Below, piece by piece: positions 1 through 53,950 of a DNA stretch of 64,000 nucleotides. A program made the translations under genes and the position numbers. The notes beneath the pieces are model-generated. The model was not told where the DNA came from. It was given only the letters and a program-made list of their open reading frames with translations, and did not search any database. Source of the stretch: Sminthopsis crassicaudata (lineage: Eukaryota); assembly GCF_048593235.1 (NCBI RefSeq), contig NC_133621.1, forward strand, positions 302,011,146-302,075,145, in the 5' to 3' direction. Positions within the stretch are counted from its first letter, which is position 1. Each line of letters begins with the position of its first letter.

Positions 1-3000
1 GTCTGAATTTTGTCCTTGAAGCAGGAGGTTTTATAATGGAAATGATATTTAGTCAGTCACACCTGCCCTTTAGGAAGATAAATTTAGAAACTAGAAGAGA
101 TGGAAAGTGAGGAAGACCAACCAGGGAAAGGCCTGAACTAAGATGGTAGTTCTTTGTGACTGAGGGGAGAGGGCAATATAAACTTCACTGAAATCGGTAA
201 CTGATTCGTTTACAGTGGGCAAAGGGGGGAGTGAGGTTCTGTCTTGTCAGCTTCTCTCTGCTGCCCAATCCTGCCAGTTATCTGTCTCACTGATATGGGC
301 CAAGGTGGCACAAGGGAGTCTAAGAGAATCTAGAAACGGATCAGGACTCCAAACACAACATGCTCAAGCGGCCAAGAATTTTATTTTACTCATGTGTCAA
401 AAGGATACATCATTAGTGTAATTTCAAGGGAAAACAGAAATTGCTGTGATAAAAGTGACAAAAATCTTTACAGATGTGTACTTCTTTATCAATACCACCG
501 TTTGTTTCTGGTTTTTTCCTGGTCAACCTTTATGAGAAGGAGCTATGAAAGAAGGGCAGGAACAGGGACTCTAAGGACTGACCTATGTCTGGAGTCCTAG
601 AGTGACCCAGGATGGAGGATTCTGGGGAAGCAAAGCCCTGACTAGTTGGCTGAGTCAGCCAGTTACCATCTCCCCATTTACTTCCCAATATACTTAATGT
701 TTGCTTTATGGAATGGAACCTGGAAAAGCAGCAGCATCAAAAACCTCTCAATATTCTGTCCCAGGCCAGATGATAAGGGGAAGGTCTCCTAGAGGGTGAG
801 TTATGACTTCAAAAAATGGGTCCTTGTTTCCTGCTCTGAGCCCACTGGCTAAAGGTGGCTGAGAAATGGGGATAGAGTGAAAGGAGTAATTCTTCAGCAG
901 AAACAATGAAGCAGATCAACTTTGGGCATAAGAAAGTATGGCATGAAATCAAAATGGCATCTTGGGGCTTATTTGAATTCCCATCTCCTAGATTAAGTGA
1001 TCCTGAACAAGTGACATAGCCTTAGTTCCCTCCTATGTAATGGCCTCTCCCAGCTTATAAAGGTAAAAAGCTTTATGCCACTTGCCACTTTAAAAACTCT
1101 GAAAGATACAGGTTTTTCCAGCAAAGGAATGAATTTTTCTTAATAAATAATCCACCAGTGAGTTCCTTCTCATAGTGCTTGAGGGGATTATATTATATCA
1201 GGATTGTTAGTGTCTGTTAATAATTTTTAATTAGGTTATCCCTTGCAGCAAATTGACCCAGAAAAGGAGGTGTGTTAATGTTATCTCCATTTTACAGATG
1301 AAGAAATTGCATTACAGTACACTTATATCAGGCTGCTTACTATCTTGGGTGTGGAGGAAAAAGGGGAGAGAGGGAGAAATTAATTTGGAACTCAAAACTT
1401 AAAAACAACAACTACAACAACAAAAACCCCAATGTTAAAAATTGTTTCTAAATGTATGGGGGGAAAATATTTAAAAAATTACTTTAGTGACATACATATC
1501 AAAACAGTCCAGACAATGAATCCAACACAGAATCTGAAAGATGGTTATTAAAGCATGAAAAAAAATCCAAACAGGTTTAACTGGATCATTATCTGCAAGG
1601 CCATGCTGGCCCAGTCTCTTATTGGCACTCATTGCTTTGAGCAAACAATCTTGAATTTTCTTATGAGCAGTCGTATAACTCGTGAATCATGTTTATAAAT
1701 CACAAAAGATTGCAAACTTCATGAAGGAAGGCTCTCTCTTTGGTATCATTCCCCCCCCCCCCCCCGAATCTACCTGGGACATAAGAGGATTATTTTTTAA
1801 AATTCAGCTGAGGCATAAAACATACAACCTAAGTCCCTATGTCCTTGGATCACAGGAATAATTTTGAGATGGGCTTGCCAAAAAAATCTGAAAGTAAATC
1901 CTGTATTGCAGCAGGCATGCATCTCAAATGGAGCAAAGGAGGGCAAAGTTTCCCTTGTCCTGAGAAGACTCTATTTTATGCCTTTTATGCCCCTTAACAC
2001 AGAAAGAAGTTACCAGATTCACAGAGCAGTACTAAAGGGAAGGACCAAAGGGCAATCAGAATAGTAGATTTTGTTTCGCTTATGGGAATTAGAGGGTGAC
2101 TTGACTTGTCAGGAAGAGGTGATCCCCAAGAGAAAAGGAAGCTAACACAGCATGACTGAGAACAAATGAAGCAAAAGTTAAGGTGATACATAAATGAAGA
2201 GTGACTTTCTTAACTGATATGTTCCTATACACAAATTTCCATTCCCTTTATGATTTTCAGTGGGTAGATGGTAGGTTAAGGATATTTTCTTTTTTATGGG
2301 GGATAGGTTGCTTGATTATGTAGTTCATGGAAGACTTTTATCACCAAAATGAACAATGAGTAAACCAACAAAAACAGAGTCCCATTGAAATAAAGCATAT
2401 TGGCTAAAAACAGCAGAGAATGTTAGTTAAAACCGAAAAATCTTAATAATGGAAACTTAGGTCTGAACGCCAATTTCCCCCTCTCCTTTATATAGGACAT
2501 GAAAAGCTGTGATGTTTATGTTCTTTGATAAATGTTAAAATTTGGACAAACTTTCATTAGCTTGGATATATGTTGGCAGAAAGCGAAAATTCAGTCTGAC
2601 CTCAATGAATATGAAATTTATACTTCAATGACCTCAAAAAACAAAACAACAACCAAAAAAACCCCAAACCCACAAACAAGAGGAGGGAGAGCAGTTTTAC
2701 TACGTGTTTTACACTTATGAGGAGTATAAGCACTAAGAAACAGCTCTTAAGGAGCATTTCTTCAGCCAGTGATGTACTGTGGGGAAGGGATGTCCTCTGA
2801 GAAAGCGGCTCCATGAACCTTAAAACTAAAGATATTAATAACATTGTCCAAAGGCTGTACCATGCTGGGAAGGAACAGGCAATAAGATAATGACCTCATT
2901 TATTGCAATTCTGATTTTATTCTGTAACGTTGATAGAGAAAAATCCAGGGAAGAAGCACTAAAATCCTTAGAGGGATGGGGGAGGAGAAGAGGATGGCTT

Positions 3001-5523
3001 TATGAGGGCAAACTAAAAATATCAGGACAACGCAAAATGGAAGAAAACTGGGAAGAAAATGATAGAAATCTAAAAAATTATGAATGACAAAGGTAATGTT
3101 AATGTAAATCCTCAAAGATTTATTTTCAGCTTGAACAATGGAGGCATTCATTTTCATCTCTGAACAACAATGGCTAACTTCACTGGCCCAAACAGCAGAA
3201 AAAGTACTGGCTCTAGAACCAGGGGACATGGTTCAAATTCTGTCTCAGATGCTCATTACCTATGACGTTGGGGGGCAAGCCATCGGCTTAGTTTCCCCCT
3301 CTGTAAAACGGAGGGGTTGGAAAGCAATGTTTGACTTGACAGCCCTGGAGGTCCCTTCCAGCCAAGCCTGGTCCCCTGTTTTTGAAAGGGAGACTGGACA
3401 AGCACAAGGTGGAAGAAGAGAACCCCCATTTATAAAACTAGCCCTCTGTGGCTGAGAAGTGCTTCCTCACAATAATCCTGGGAAATGAGTGGTAATGGTT
3501 TGGTTTTGCTTTTGCTTTGCCATTTAACAGATGAAAAAACTGAGATTTGTCCAGCTAATAAGTAGCAGGAGCAAGAATTTAAAACCCGTCTCCTGCCTTC
3601 AAAGAGCACTGGAATGACAACAGATAGAGAAGGCAATTGGCCAAATAAAAGGAAGTTGGCCCTGCTCCAAAGCACAGCAGATTCATTGCCCAGATAGACG
3701 TTTTTAAATGACAAAACCATTACTGAGGCCACGAAGAGAAAGTATCCGTGAAGAGGAGGGAGGGACAGACACACACTGTGGCTGGAAGTGAGAACTGCTT
3801 CTGATCTAAAATGGCTTTAAAGCTTGGGAGAAAACTCAAATAATATGTCTGGTCTTCAGTTCCAAAGGTTACTGTCCCAACGTTCAGGAGGCCTAGGGGA
3901 GAAGGAGAGGCCCCCTCAGAGCCACCCAGAGGCGATGAAGAAGTGGGCCCCGGTGGAAATCTCCCCAGTCTGGGAAGCACAGAGTTGTCCAAATTCCCTT
4001 TTCCGTGCATCTAGGAAACCTACCTAGCAATTTACTTTCTCATTATGAGCGGGCAAACCACACGGCTCCAATCCAAGAATTCTGTTTATTTTTTGTAACC
4101 AGACAGCAATCATAAGTGACTGGGGACACTGCTCCTTCCTCCATGACGCTTTTCAGTCTCAATGAAGTGACTGTCACACTTCCTGTATTTTTCTTTAGCA
4201 ATAGTCAAAATTATGTTCAACTCAAGTTAAAACTGGACAAGGATTAAGAACCCGTCTATAGGAGCAGCTTTTCAGCCCCGACTTTTGGGCCCCCAGCACA
4301 TGGAAAGCAAAAGTCCATGGGGGATGCTAGTGTGAGGGAGGGCGGCCCAGGAAGCACACGCAGCTCTAAGGGGATCTACTGTCTGGGGCGTTCTGCAAGG
4401 ACGGCTCCAAGGAAATGGAATTAGAAATTGTTTTACTCCACAGAATTCTGATGAATGCCATCACATCCCATTAGGTCTTGTCCATATAATTTATATTTTT
4501 CTTTTTAGAAACCAGGTAATTTCATGCATTTCCCAATCCCCTTCCAAGCTAATCTTATTTCTCCCCTAATTTGGCAGCAACTCCCCCCCTCCCAATCTCT
4601 GACCACAAATCACTTCCTCTCTTCCAAAACTTCGAGATCTTCCCGCAAGCCCAGCCCTCTTCTCTCCAGAGCCCGAGCTCCGCTTCCCGACTAGCCCCAA
4701 CTCTGCTCTAGGCGGGTCAAAAGCGGTGCAACCTCCCCTTGCTCCCCTCGCCCCCGTCCACCCCAGACGCAGAGCTCTTTTGGCGGGTCAAAGGCGGCGC
4801 ATCATCCCGTGCCCCCATCCCGGACTCAGACGGATCCAAGGCGGTGCATCCTTCCCCGCCCCCCCAGGCTTTTCTCGGAGGGTCACAGATGGCTCGCCCT
4901 CCCACCCCTCCTTCCCCCCACGCCCTGGGCTCAGATCTCTCGGCGGGTCACAGGCATCCTCTGGCACCCTCCACCCTGGGCCCAGCCTTTCTGGGCAGCT
5001 TACAGGCGGTTTATCCTCTCGTGCCTCCCATGCCCCCCACCCTGGGCCAGAGTTCTCTCGGTGCCCCTTCCAGCACTGAGGCTACAGGGTCCAGTCCAGT
5101 TTGTAAACGTTGCAGTTTGCTGATTGGTCCCCTGGCTGAGCCTGCATCCTGAAGTGCGAGAGAGCAGCACTGGGGGAGGGGAGCAGGGCGTCCCGGGGAG
5201 CTGCCCCTCCCCCCTCCCCAGCCCACGGGGGAGGGGCAACCCCTGCCCTGGACCCCAGGATACCCCCTCCCCCCACGCCTCTCCTCGCCTTACGAAGACA
5301 ACCACCGAGGACCACGCAGACCGGCAGTGACGAACCCAAGGTCACCAAAGCAGGGAGCTCGCACCGCCTCCCCAAAGTCTGGGCCTCCCGGGGCGGGGAC
5401 CGCAGGACACCCAAGTCTTGGGTCTTCGCCTCCCCTGCCTCCCCCTCCCCCGCAGCGGCCTCGGTCTCCGCTCGCCCGGGCAGCCAGCAGGCGCTCAATA
5501 AATGCAGATACGGGGGCGCTCAC

Positions 5524-5611: not shown

Positions 5612-7409
5612 CGACGCCGGCTGCGACCCCAAGGGTAGCGGCGGCGAGTGCGGCGGCGGCGGCGTCGTCTTCTCCGTTTTAGTGCCGCACCGACCGGGGC
5701 GGTGGGCAGAGGCCCTGCGGCGTCGGGGGCTGGGAGACTCGGGCCGGCGCTGCGCTGCGCGGGCTGCTCAGCCGCACGGGGCCGCACGCGCCCCGGCAAC
5801 GCCGACTGTGAGGTGACAGAGGGCCGAGGGGCGGGATGCCGCCCGGGCCCGACTGCGCGTGCGCGACACTGCCCACGCCGTGGCGCTCCGCCCCCTGGTC
5901 CGCCCGGCGACGTCACGGCCCCGAACGAAAGGGGAAGGAGGCCGAGGACCTACTGCGCATGTGCACCGAGCCCTCCGCGCAGCCGGGGACGGGGAGAACC
6001 GAGGTCTGCCGCGCATGTCCACCGTAGCTACCTGTCCGTTTTCAGTTCGGATGATGGTGGGGTTTGGCAGGGCGCCTCCAAAAGAGGAACTGCCCTGCGA
6101 ATGTGCTATTAACAGGGCAGCTAGTGCCCGCCTGGAGACGCGTCTTCCCGAGTTCAACTCTGGCCTCTGACACACTAGTTTGTGATGCCGGGAAAGTCAC
6201 TTAACTCTGTTTTCCTCGATTTCCTCATCTCTAAAATGAGCTGAAGAAGGAAAAGGCGAGCCGCCGTAGCTCCTTCGCCAAGAAAATCCCAAGTGCGAGT
6301 CAGACAAGAGCGGAAAACTGGGGAACTACAACACTGGGCCACAACCAGGGGGCGGCGCCGCGAAGCGGAGGGGAGGGGAATGAGGGAACGAGGATCCTAT
6401 TGCGCAAGCGCGGCACCGCCCCAACCCAACCCGAAAACAACCGCCGGGGGCGGGGCCTTGTCGATTTTACCGCGGCGTGTGTGGCGTATGGGACTTTTGC
6501 GCATGTGTAAGACGAAACTTTTTCCCACGCCTACAAAGGGGTGGGGCTCCTCCCGGAAGAGAGTCGCCCAGGTAGTGGGAGAGTTGGAGGCGAAGGTGTT
6601 TTACGCGCTTGTGGTCTTCGCTTCTTTTGGCATTTCACCCATCGGGTAACTGAAACTGTGGCTCTGAGGGAAATGTAGACGGCGAGATTCTCACCCTCTT
6701 TCCCCACCAGCTATGTAGTACCTCCACTCCTTCCAGCCACTTTGTACTTATTTTGCATATGTGAAGCCACGTGCCACACCCATGCCTCCCTTCACTTAAG
6801 TTTTTGTGTCCTCGATGCGCAGGCGCGCTGCGAGTACTTTATTGTTCACGCTTCGAGACTGCTTCCCAGGCTGCCGCTGCGCCACTACCCGCCTCGTCAA
6901 TCGTGGGTACTTATAAGTGTTTGTCTTTCGGGTGCCGACTGGGTCGTGGTGCAAGTGCCTTCTGCGCCCGTCCGAACTACTCTCACTCTTTAATAGGCGG
7001 CTCATTCCAGGCTCTGGATTCAATATGAAGGCTGCCCCTGTCCTAGAGGAGGGATTTATTGTCAGGAAAATCAACATGCACACAGAAAAAGATACGGAGT
7101 GACTTTGTGGGTGGGAGGACTGACTGCTCCGGCCATCGGGATGAATTTCCTGCAAAAGGAACAAGTTTTACGGGAAGAGAGTGAGGGGCCGCAGAGGGAA
7201 AGGAGCCGGGCCTTACTCTCTGCGCATGTGCACCGCGCCACCGTGCACCCGACTCCCTCCCACCGACGCCCGTGAATGGGCGGGGCTTTGGCTCCCCTTC
7301 TGGCCGGGAGGGTGGATTGGTTGGTAGGATTAGAGATTGAGGAGGCGGGAAGGAGGGCTACACGTGCACTGAGGAGCTAGCGGATTGGACTGTGGGGCCG
7401 CGCGCGTGC

Positions 7410-49700: not shown

Positions 49701-50092
49701 GGATCTCCAACTTATCTTCTCTACGTTTTGTTACTTCAGGGCTGTCTGCACGTTGCCCCTTCTCCATGTTAAACTGGGAGCTCGAGGCCAAGGCCTTCTT
49801 TTTAACTTATTACTGTCCTACCGTCCCTGACTCTAATAAAAGTTTGTGGATTGACAGAAAATTTAGTCCTCAGCACTAAAGTGCTTGGCATTGTCAGAAA
49901 CTGATATGGTTTTATTGGCTGAAACTTTAAAGAGATAAAATCATGTTGTACCCCACGGTCAAAATGGGGTCTTTTCATATGTAGCAGCTGATACCTCCTC
50001 CATAGGTCTCTCTCCTCCCCCCCCCCATTAGAATGAGAATCCCTGAGATTTTCTTAGTTCCTCCACTTGTATCCCCTGAGTTTAGTGAGAGT

Positions 50093-50477
50093 AAGTGCTT
50101 AATAATGGATTCTTCATTCATTCAGACTGAGGGCAAGTGCTTAATAATTGCTTTTACATTCAGGCTCAGGAAAGTGCTTAATAATGGCTTCTTTATACAT
50201 TCAGACTGAGTGTAAGTGCTTAATAATGGCTTCTTCATTCATTCAGACTGAGGGCAAGTGCTTAATAATTGCTTTTACATTCAGGCTCAGGAAAGTGCTT
50301 AATAATTGCTTCTTTATACCATCAGACTGAGTGTAAGTGCTTAATAATGGCTTCTTCATACATTCAGGGGGAGGGCAAGTGCTTAATAATTGTTTTTACA
50401 TTCAGGCTCAGGAAAGTGCTTAATAATTGCTTCTTCATACATTCAGACTGAGTGTAAGTGCTTAATAATTGCTTTTA
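50093..50477 (+). repeat. Minisatellite, 37/42-bp units (AAGTGCTTAATAATTGCTT...), left arm
   Basis: Nine full units plus one interrupted unit; 121-bp (42+37+42) higher-order period; begins in an L2-like 3' tail. Confidence 0.92.
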
Positions 50478-52720
50478 GGCAAAGGTTCCTAACATGGCAG
50501 CCTTACACCTGGCATGTCAAAGGATCGCTGTCCACTGGAATCCTATTTCCAGTGCCCCTTTGTCTCTACTTCACCTTTTACTAGCTAGACTTTACTTCCA
50601 AACCCCATAATAAACCTCTTTTATCAATCTAGGTTTTCAGGCCTGTAAATTCCTTTACAGGGGACTCTGCACTGTCACTGGACTATTCTTGCACCAAACC
50701 AAAAGGGTTCCCCCTTTCCTAATTCTCATCAGTTTGGCTCGGGACGCTGAGTGCAAACGAATTCCTGTATATTGACAAATAGCTCTTATGGAAGAGAGCG
50801 TTTGTTGGATCTTCCTAAGAGACATCTAGTGAAGATTGAGCTATAGAATTGGGAAGTTTTCGGGCTTGTGGCAAAGATGGGTGAGCTTCCCTCCTCCATG
50901 CCTAGAGAGTCTCCTTTAAGCTGTCTCTTAATGCAGAGACACACTGGGCTTGAGAAAAATACCTCAATCTCAAACCTGAACTCCAAATAGATTAGCTGAA
51001 TCCCTCTCCACCCACCAACTCTCTGGCAAGTCCATTCTTAAAAGCCTTTCTTTTCTCTTTCAAAGCCTGGGACTGATATTTTACCTCTGCCCTCAGTCAA
51101 TAAGCAGCAAACCAAATCACCCAGCACACTTATCTCTCTTTTAAAGCAAAAAACGTCTTCCACTCCATTGCTAACAGCTGTTGGTTTCCCTTTAACTCTC
51201 TAACCTGAGACTCAGCTCTCCTTCTCAGGGCAACTTCTGTCTCCTGAAAGAAACACTCAGAGCGGATGTGTTTTTTAATACCAATTTCTCCCAGACTCAG
51301 GCCTGTAGGTGCTATGGAAACTGTCCGAGGAGACCCCAGTCTCTGTCCTGAGTTCGAGCAGGAGGAAAACTGGAAAAACTATGTCAGCAAACACCACAGG
51401 GGCTGAACTGGCCCCCAGCGTCCTGCTCCCTGGTAGGAAATTGGGCTCTGGCCCTGTTTCCCTTTTATCCCAGGACAGTCCGGACACCTCAGGGCCGGTA
51501 AGCTGGGTAGGCAATGCTGATGCTTGGCACCCCCTCTGACTCCTTCCACCCCTCCCCCATAGGAGTGGGGAAACTAGGAGGGAAGATTCGGGATCTTTGC
51601 TTCTTGAGGAACCAACTCTCTTCTCTTAAAGAAAAGCAGCACAGTTAAAAGATTTCTAAGAGCTTAAACTGCATTCTTATCTTGACTAGAGAGACAAATT
51701 ATCTTTTGCTCTCCACATTTTCTCCTACTTCTCTTTGATAGTTAGATGGGCCATTAGCATTCTACACGCAGCCCACAGAAGGGACCTGAGGCATTTCTAG
51801 CTAAATTCCCTCATTCCCCCAAATGTCGGCCATCTGCACCCTGGATGACACCCCGCTTCTAATCTGCTCCCGAGACCTGTTTTCTCTAGGCTTCAAACTT
51901 TGGATTCTCAGCCGCCCTTCAGCCTGGAGAACATGGGACAAGTGACTGGGGACGCCTGACCGGGATACCCCTCGAGGCCCTGCTGCCACCCCCCACACCT
52001 CACGCCTCGCCTCCTGGCATGAACCCCCAAATCTCTACGACCCTTGCCAGCTTGAAGCAGTTAAGAGGAGATTGCCGCCCCTTTTGCCACATGCATTTGG
52101 AGGTGACTGCTTGAGGGGGGAAGGAAGAGGGGACCCTGCTACTCTGAAGATCTTTGGAGAAAATCTTCAACCCTGCCTCAATAAGAGACTCTGCCTCAAG
52201 TTTTTTTTTTTGTTTGTTTGTTTTTTTTCTTAAATGAATTTAACTTTTAACTGCTTAAGGGGGGAATGATGTGAGTTGTGGTCTCTTTAAGACTAGTGCT
52301 TTCCGATTGATTTATTCCTTTGATTCACAAATCCTGGTCAAAAGCACCCTTTTGAATTCCAATAGGAGATATCTGGGCTCTCCCAGCCCCCATTGGATCT
52401 GAGCCAACTTGGGCTGTCCCAGCCCCCATTCTGATGATCTGTTCAGGTTTCCCAACCCACATCTAGCAAATTCTAGCCCTGGATGAAAGTCATCGAGAAA
52501 CCAACGTGGGACTTCACCCATAGGCCCCTTTTGCTAAATCTCTCCTTATAAAAGAGCCAAGCTGGAATCATCTCTTTGCAGAGGATAGAAACATGTCAAC
52601 TCTCTGCCCACTGGAACTTCTAGTTCTGGTGCCCTCCTCTCTTTACCTAACACCTTTTACTAACTAGACTTTACTTCCAAACCCCACAATAAACCTCTTT
52701 TATCAATCTAAAAAAAAAAA
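50478..52720 (+). mobile_element. Processed (LINE-retroposed) copy of a non-coding LTR/ERV element RNA: R-U5-PBS-internal-PPT-U3-R-poly(A)
   Basis: R 50479-50631 repeated at 52578-52710; U5 ends CATCA at 50731 followed by TGG at 50735; PPT AAGGGGGGAA then TGATG at 52267; TATAAAA 52547; AATAAA 52688; A11 tail 52710-52720; TSD AATTGCTTTTA. Confidence 0.88.
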
Positions 52721-52980
52721 TTGCTTTTACATCCAGGCTCAGGAAAGTGCTTAATAATTGCTTCTTCATACATTTAGGGAGAGGGTAAGTGCTTAATAAT
52801 TGCTTTTACATGCAGCTCAGGAAAGTGCTTAATAATTGCTTCTTCATACATTCAGGCTGAGGGTAAGTGCTTAATAATTGCTTCTTCATTCATTCAGGCA
52901 GAAGTTAAGGTGTTTAATAATTGCTTTTTCATTATTCAGGCTGAAGGTAAGTGCTTAATAATTGCTTGCTCATTCATTCA
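52721..52980 (+). repeat. Same minisatellite, right arm
   Basis: Remainder of the interrupted unit plus about six units, more degenerate toward 52980. Confidence 0.92.
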
Positions 52981-53039
52981 AGGCTGGATGAAAGCTTGCT
53001 GATTGACCGTATCCAGGTTGAACTATTGGCCTGTGATTC

Positions 53040-53950
53040 TGATCCGAGGCGCTCCGAGGGCACGTGACACCGAGGGCGCTTTAGAAATGTTTGCTGACAC
53101 ACAGGCGGCAGCCAAACAATGCATGCCAAAGCGGTACCACGTGACCCCGAGGCTCCGGTCTGCGCAGGCGCACTTCGCAGAGCCTCGTCTTGGTCCATTC
53201 TCGGCTAGTGCGCGTGCGCAGAGCGTGTTCGCCTGGCGCTCGAGGAGGTGTCGGATCGCGGGCTCGGAGTGGAGAGGATGGAGGCGAGGCCGGAGCTCGC
53301 AGATGATGAGGAGGCAACGGGAGCGGCGATGCTGTTCTACGACCGGTCCCATTTCCGGCACGACCCGCGCTGGCTGCTGCCCCAGCCACCGCGCCTCTGC
53401 CTGGCTTGCACCATGGAGCTGCTGCAGTCCACGAGCCGCGTCTCGGTGCGGCCCTACTGCGCGTGCGCCTTCCCGGACCCGCGCCGTTCTATCTTTCAAT
53501 GCGCCTGCGCCCCCTTCCCCCACCATGCTACCCCTCCCCCTTCCCCTTTCGCTTTAAGCTCCCCCACCCACTGCGTCTGTGCCTCCGCCAAAAGCCCCTG
53601 CCTCCCTGCCCCAGACTAGTTTTCCTCTCGTGTGCTCCGAGCTGACGTTTGTTCGGCGCTGGGGATGTATCGATTTTGCGGTGCAGCCAGATGTGTGTGT
53701 CCGCATGTGTAGACGTGCACGCGCACACAGAACTGCTTTTTGAAGCTCAGCCTCAGGACAGGGGGATTATTGGTTATCATGCCCGCTTTACAGGCAGAGA
53801 AACTGAGGCTCCCAGAGACCGAGTTGGAATTTGAGCCCAGATATTCCCGCTTCCGGCCCACCCGGAGCCCCCCTGGATAAGGCCGCCGCGCCTCCCTTCC
53901 CTAAGGAGCCTGTGTTTCTGTGGTTTAACGCGCCATCGATGTCCCCATTA
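53040..53950 (+). promoter_or_regulatory. MEI1 CpG-island promoter with E-boxes and NRF1-type sites
   Basis: CACGTGAC at 53061 and 53138; TGCGCAGGCGCA at 53161-53172; TGCGCGTGCGCA at 53209-53220; CpG-rich. Confidence 0.7.
53278..53445 (+). CDS. MEI1: MEI1 exon 1
   Basis: [56 protein letters not shown]; donor GTGCGG. Confidence 0.9.

Follow-up and report, generated by a model that had tools for sequence, protein, structure and literature searches.

A processed copy of a dasyurid ERV1 RNA joining two LTR subfamilies, and a class of R-only copies of the same family, in Sminthopsis crassicaudata

Results

The insert and its host minisatellite

The window, by which we mean the whole 64,000-nucleotide stretch of Sminthopsis crassicaudata DNA that was analysed (contig NC_133621.1), carries at 50086-52986 a minisatellite of 37-42 bp units with a higher-order period of 121 bp (42-37-42). 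The unit resembles what we take to be the 3' tail of L2/MIR repeats, and what is presumably an L2-like end precedes the array (50020-50092). Comparison of the repeat units divides the minisatellite into a left part (50086..50477) and a right part (52730..52986; these and all features below are given on the + strand), and between the two lies a 2.2-kb insert (50478..52720). The end of the insert is about 550 bp upstream of an ATG at 53278, which opens a GC-rich region and belongs to a gene that we take to be MEI1. Part of the stretch is contained in 20 sequencing runs from one organism, nine of which contain at least half of its words; no RNA run is listed among them.

The insert has the order R-U5, 1.5 kb of internal sequence, polypurine tract, U3-R, A-tail and 11-bp target duplication. 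An extra G (50478) is followed by a first R (50479..50631), whose own AATAAA at 50609 was read through and whose best relative stands at 94.7%, and by a short U5 of 100 bp (50632..50731), which ends in CATCA at 50731 and is of a type seen on tRNA-Ile-primed proviruses. The internal region (50732..52256), which corresponds to the 3' part of a long-U5, tRNA-Glu-primed element, is joined directly to the terminal CA of the LTR and contains neither a PBS nor a long ORF. A polypurine tract (52257..52266) lies immediately 5' of the LTR start, as is seen in solo LTRs, and is followed by U3 (52267..52577, with TGATG at 52267 and TATAAAA at 52547), which by eye is like the published type 2 LTR, and by a second R (52578..52710) of another subfamily than the first, with AATAAA at 52688 and cleavage about 17 nt beyond. 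Comparison with LTR copies showed that 8 nt of poly(A) (52711..52718) were added between the templated A and the duplication; the 11 A's at 52710-52720 thus consist of one templated, eight added and two that belong to the duplication. Neither a 5' U3 nor a 3' U5 was found when the insert was compared with itself by BLAST, and the order of a viral RNA that the sequence-only reading had assigned to this DNA was borne out feature by feature. The longest stop-to-stop frame overlapping the insert was 116 aa and a Pfam search with seven window frames gave no match, in agreement with the earlier description of an element without a long ORF.

Two copies of the 11-mer AATTGCTTTTA flank the insert (50467..50477 and 52719..52729). 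Because this 11-mer is a recurrent part of the minisatellite unit, the target site duplication needed separate testing. The interrupted unit has 22 bp before the insert and 15 bp after the second 11-mer, which together restore the 37 bp of an intact unit; therefore the flanking duplication proposed earlier is genuine by unit phase, although the 11-mer recurs in the array, and the minisatellite serves as its own empty site for the insertion. The cut site is AT/AATT, so that the proposed likeness to TT/AAAA is a loose one, and it is a weak L1 site. Among the tailed loci of the family (described below) for which a duplication was called automatically (54/76, some of them spurious), a pyrimidine precedes the cut in 48, and at least three of the first four bases are A in 33.

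The parent ERV family

Genome searches with the R-U5 of the insert and with its 3' internal sequence gave 3897 and 1564 candidates, respectively, of which 40 were scored in each case. The exact R-end pattern continues into U5 at 1810 sites and into A's at 28 sites. None of the best 29 internal matches is tail-terminated, and the readable ones continue into U5. The tail of the insert begins at the very base where LTR copies run on into U5, and LTR copies have no A-run at that position.

The family had been proposed as possibly undescribed, but its LTR is that of the dasyurid ERV1 element published by Gallus et al. 2015, dated to 40-30 Ma in Dasyuridae in the available text of that paper (PMC4408412). 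By eye, the LTR and the types given there have the same ends (TGATG/CATCA) and the same TATA-R and AATAAA-cleavage sequences, and the LTR of the copy L174 is about 709 bp long, compared with the published 711 bp. A complete parent copy, L184, is about 5.4 kb long, and its longest frame is 146 aa. No coding remnants were found in the window or in L184 by inspection of open frames and by a Pfam search, in which nine L184 frames and the seven window frames had no match; the assignment to class ERV1 comes from Gallus et al. (PMC4408412). From its internal region on, the insert aligns to positions 2945-5254 of the 5.45-kb L184 copy, and the PBS and the 2.3 kb after it are therefore absent. The idea of a short, non-autonomous 2.2-kb element thus holds in that the sequence is non-coding and fails in that the parent is about 5.4 kb long and has a tRNA-Glu PBS. 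A large internal deletion is seen in the 3.7-kb L174, and an integrase-type 4-bp duplication was seen at a nested LTR in L114 (one case checked).

A TGG at 50735 had been taken to mark the PBS. In relatives, the counterpart of the insert sequence 3' of 50731 lies within the internal region, behind GGATCG and at least 900 bp from any LTR, and the true PBS adjoins U5 directly. After tRNA-Glu and tRNA-Ile genes had been confirmed in the genome, the window site was found to match tRNA-Glu at 7/18 and tRNA-Ile at 6/18 positions, compared with 13-14/18 for long-U5 copies against the genome tRNA-Glu (n=3 scored) and 13-15/18 for short-U5 proviruses against tRNA-Ile (n=5 scored). The supposed PBS is internal DNA, and priming by an unrecognised tRNA was rejected on that ground; the relatives use tRNA-Glu or tRNA-Ile. 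As the source RNA of the insert had no PBS, retroviral copying of it was impossible.

Other copies of the family showed features of their own. The short-U5 proviruses L245-L248, L251, L254 and L256 are about 5-6.5 kb long, have a tRNA-Ile-type PBS, yet their 3' internal DNA is one that the tRNA-Glu lineage also has. In L191, L192 and L193 (near position 1497), the LTR end is followed by a perfect 18-base tRNA-Glu PBS that continues into more antisense tRNA, and L191 contains a whole tRNA-Glu(CTC) copy, after which the LTR end is repeated; reverse transcription seems to have run on into the primer in these copies. Near-identical sets (L032/L041/L185 on contig C2 at 40.7-41.1 Mb, L034/L035, L071/L072 and L145/L146) look like segmental duplicates and not separate insertions. 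The ERV internal region of L090 (590-915, minus strand as read) harbours a short processed pseudogene that ends in poly(A), has a small cysteine-rich frame and resembles what is presumably a ribosomal protein gene.

Two LTR subfamilies in one insert

In the insert, the terminal CA of a short-U5 LTR abuts the last 2.3 kb of a long-U5 element. When LTRs with the second R type were analysed (n=20), 18 had a long U5, none had a short U5 and two were unscored. The two R's of the insert fall in different starred clades of the R tree, and their placement as sisters was rejected (p-AU 0.001; 158 columns, 63/163 rows), whereas control pairs from other two-R copies were rejected in 0/5 cases. The raw identity between the two R's (97% over the last 60 bp, 85% overall) was considered as proof of chimerism and found insufficient, since 85% lies inside the 83-89% range of the other two-R copies; the case for a chimera is therefore carried solely by the tree test and the U5 type.

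The junction retains the LTR terminal CA and the internal G, as an integrase join would leave them. A splicing origin was rejected, because there is no AG at the would-be acceptor. A genome search for the U5-internal junction with up to 3 mismatches returned one match, the window itself, and found neither a source locus nor a sibling. The window copy is thus a one-off, contrary to the suggestion that it belongs to a composite retroposon family. Nested LTRs are found elsewhere in the genome: L114 contains at 2100-2570 a short-U5 solo LTR nested in the same internal region with a 4-bp duplication, and L171 contains at 6000-6430 a solo LTR nested in a sister element with a similar LTR-to-internal join.

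Tailed copies and the R-only class

A looser tail pattern gave 75 sites, and its reversed control gave none. The union of the exact and looser searches contains 76 loci, or 75 after the duplicate L072 is dropped. A script placed the start of 44 of the 76 at R, recognised U3 in 11 and put the remaining 21 in a class "other". By hand correction, L080, L235 and L217 were taken out of the 44 for their U3 remnants, as was the duplicate L072; the 40 R-only copies that remain measure 138-188 bp. Eight rows of the class "other" also start at R (L065, L195, L197, L198, L213, L219, L223 and L225). At least 48 of the 75 tailed loci are R-only copies of about 155 bp, which are found among L061-L088, L138, L141, L144, L195-L240, L263, L264 and L277 and belong to at least three LTR subfamilies. 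Their layout, a duplication, usually a G, about 155 bp of R, poly(A) and the second duplication, is the commonest processed form, and the script called a duplication in 39/44 R-start loci, a few of these calls being doubtful. The R-only copies are full-length promoter-to-poly(A) transcripts, not truncations.

R-only copies occur in every LTR subfamily clade. Their labels require 36 changes on the tree for 47 rows, compared with a shuffled mean of 41, and 15/500 shuffles were as low; in a careful tree with noisier labels, at least 13 changes are forced by starred branches. The best R-only pair is 97% alike, compared with 98% for R-only to LTR. The R-only copies have many sources, with slight clustering and no SINE-like clade, and are therefore not a SINE.

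Longer copies that run from R to the tail and have a normal PBS are L183 (4.73 kb) and L181+L199 (an 11 kb span, the middle of which was partly read). L182 begins with G and R and has no U3, yet it has a complete LTR at its end, and no tail or duplication was found downstream of it. L203, L207, L230 and L235 are tailed copies whose first base lies at the TATA or shortly upstream of it, 25-55 bp before R; they may be either truncations or products of upstream starts.

The extra G

When a capped RNA is reverse-transcribed, the cap can be copied into an additional G. R is preceded by G in 33/44 R-start tailed loci (31/40 after hand correction), compared with 9 of the first 100 of 1386 LTR sites (Fisher p 4e-15 with the uncorrected counts), and by T in 11/11 U3-bearing tailed copies. 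Of the 29 closest LTR matches, none has G before R. When 46 of 122 G-first sites were examined, 31 were LTRs, nine were R-only and six were G+R+U5 without U3 (four rows were moved by hand). A templated G does occur in LTRs, for instance in both LTRs of L184, and the cap origin of the G is therefore not certain for this one copy; the G at 50478 very probably comes from the cap. The sequence-only reading had described this G as untemplated and cap-derived, and had named a G or A-run templated in the source as evidence to the contrary. The ratio of 31/40 to 9/100 makes the cap origin probable and the templated G of some LTRs keeps it from being certain; LTRs have no A-run at the site and a templated G in 9/100.

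Discussion

The results support the view that the insert arose when an RNA with cap and poly(A), derived from an already described marsupial ERV family, was copied by L1-type machinery. L1-type retrotransposition of an LTR-element RNA had been proposed from the first, and the tail at the poly(A) site, the duplication and the extra G all agree with it. The copying enzyme was very probably L1, to judge from the pure A-tail, the length of the duplication and the extra G. Alternatively, an RTE element may have done the copying, as RTE LINEs also occur in marsupials (PMC4408412); the cut site AT/AATT is a weak one for L1.

The RNA probably came from a solo LTR that lay within a sister element. A short-U5 solo LTR would have integrated, in the same orientation, into an older non-coding ERV1 of the long-U5, tRNA-Glu-primed kind, inside its internal region. 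In the germ line, RNA polymerase II would have started at the R of the nested LTR and read through its own poly(A) signal at 50609, and the transcript would have crossed U5 and the last 1.5 kb of the host internal region before being cleaved and polyadenylated at the host 3' LTR. L1-type target-primed reverse transcription would then have proceeded to the cap, giving the extra G, and inserted the copy into the minisatellite with an 11-bp duplication. LTRs of the family would more often have stopped at their own poly(A) signal, yielding RNAs of about 155 nt that were copied in the same way and gave rise to the R-only class, so that the read-through and R-only forms may be two outcomes of one promoter. 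We give the whole of this model, nested-LTR read-through followed by L1 retrotransposition, a probability of about 0.63.

It is also conceivable, though on the whole unlikely, that L1 copied the RNA of a provirus that was itself recombinant or deleted, through a template switch between co-packaged short-U5 and long-U5 RNAs or a deletion of the PBS and leader at TGG microhomology. The start of the PBS and the internal site have (T)TGG in common, the 3' internal DNA is common to both lineages, and large internal deletions exist, as in the 3.7-kb L174. However, the junction has the terminal CA and an internal G with no PBS spacer, and the closest U5 type has the spacer TG, which mismatches the junction. 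Retroviral copying would moreover have equalised the two LTRs, yet the sisterhood of the two R's was rejected. Less probable by far is a chimera made during L1 reverse transcription itself, in which the enzyme left its U3-R-poly(A) RNA template and continued on another molecule, either an R-U5 RNA or strong-stop DNA. The uniqueness of the junction, the failure to find its source and the aberrant reverse-transcription products of the family, such as the antisense tRNA-Glu after the LTR in L191-L193, speak in its favour, but such a switch would have had no reason to land on the last base of the LTR, and nested LTRs of the kind that the read-through model needs do occur in the genome.

That the insert is a member of a self-propagating composite retroposon family is very improbable. 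The 75 distinct tailed loci, the mild clustering of R-only labels (15/500 shuffles as low) and an R-only nearest neighbour for 15/37, compared with 28% expected with these noisy labels, could be seen as signs of one. On the other side, the junction was found once, the 36 changes for 47 R-only rows are spread over every LTR subfamily clade, the best R-only pair (97%) is no better than R-only to LTR (98%), processed copies have no U3 promoter, and tailed sites number 28, compared with 1810 that continue into U5. An ordinary provirus from which deletions removed the 5' U3 and the 3' U5, with a false duplication lent by the recurrence of the 11-mer in the array, can hardly be entertained, because both ends fall on the same bases as those of dozens of independent copies with tails, no A-run is present at the tail site of LTRs and the unit phase indicates a true duplication.

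The insert brings an intact U3 with its TATA, which points toward the downstream gene from about 700 bp upstream of the gene start, with AATAAA and the A-run intervening. The local interest of the window copy would be limited to this candidate promoter. Taken jointly, the observations allow a wider but tentative reading, which we consider doubtful as a whole. Solo LTRs of the family might have acted as stand-alone germ-line units producing capped, polyadenylated RNAs of about 155 nt, and their copying by L1 might have made a distinct, unnamed R-only class, likely with hundreds of members genome-wide if diverged tails are included, which would be a fossil record of where the transcripts of an extinct ERV started and were polyadenylated. 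Such copies might be expected to have gone unnoticed, labelled as LTR fragments, in other mammals, and the window copy, as their read-through counterpart, may have supplied an LTR promoter to the meiosis gene downstream.

We found no account of the R-only class in the literature, and the available text of two papers (PMC11334065, PMC11359688) contains nothing on it; an earlier description is possible, as Dfam and Repbase lay outside the scope of the search. With single-base precision, the R-only copies locate where transcription from an old LTR began and where its RNA was polyadenylated, and they provide a within-genome test of cap copying (31/40 compared with 9/100). Dasyurid phylogeny gains from them a set of clean presence/absence markers.

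SVA and LAVA composite retroposons are mobilised by L1, are transcribed by polymerase II, contain pieces of ERVs and form self-renewing clades with a shared structure. In contrast to these clades, the junction of the present insert is single-copy and the R-only copies are polyphyletic.

Closer to our findings are the five L1-mobilised short copies from the Tasmanian devil, listed as 169-335 nt, that were reported by Gallus et al. 2015 (PMC4408412; this and the following statements refer to the available text). Those copies, like the present ones, have the same end site and duplications, and their copy 1 starts at the same base of R. Gallus et al. read them as 5'-truncated copies primed on an A-run inside the ERV RNA. 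LTRs have no A-run at the site and the R-only copies described here start at R, and this reading is therefore corrected here. The set of Gallus et al. consists of LTRs and short copies; ours also includes the internal region with two PBS types and, beyond that, three R-to-tail copies with two R's, a chimera that lacks a PBS, and 48 or more R-only copies beginning at the transcription start. Since L1 mobilisation of short copies of this family was already known (PMC4408412), it is the R-only census that is new.

The processed pseudogenes of HERV-W resemble the insert in beginning with R-U5, in ending with U3-R and poly(A), and in having a duplication of 5-15 bp (Grandi et al. 2016, PMC5016936, and the review PMC5537654, as far as the available text of both goes). 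The insert agrees with HERV-W copies in its ends, tail and duplication and departs from them in not being collinear with one provirus: those of HERV-W follow a coding proviral RNA collinearly (PMC5016936), whereas the insert is non-coding, PBS-less and derived from two LTR subfamilies. Processed copies account for 135/213 internal-bearing HERV-W loci (PMC5016936), and the available text of the two papers mentions no R-only class (PMC5016936, PMC5537654), whereas R alone is the commonest processed form here. L1 copying of ERV RNA has been described as peculiar to HERV-W among human groups, its determinants being unknown (PMC5537654). The marsupial family is a second system of L1-copied ERV RNA, in which the substrate is short and non-coding and R alone suffices.
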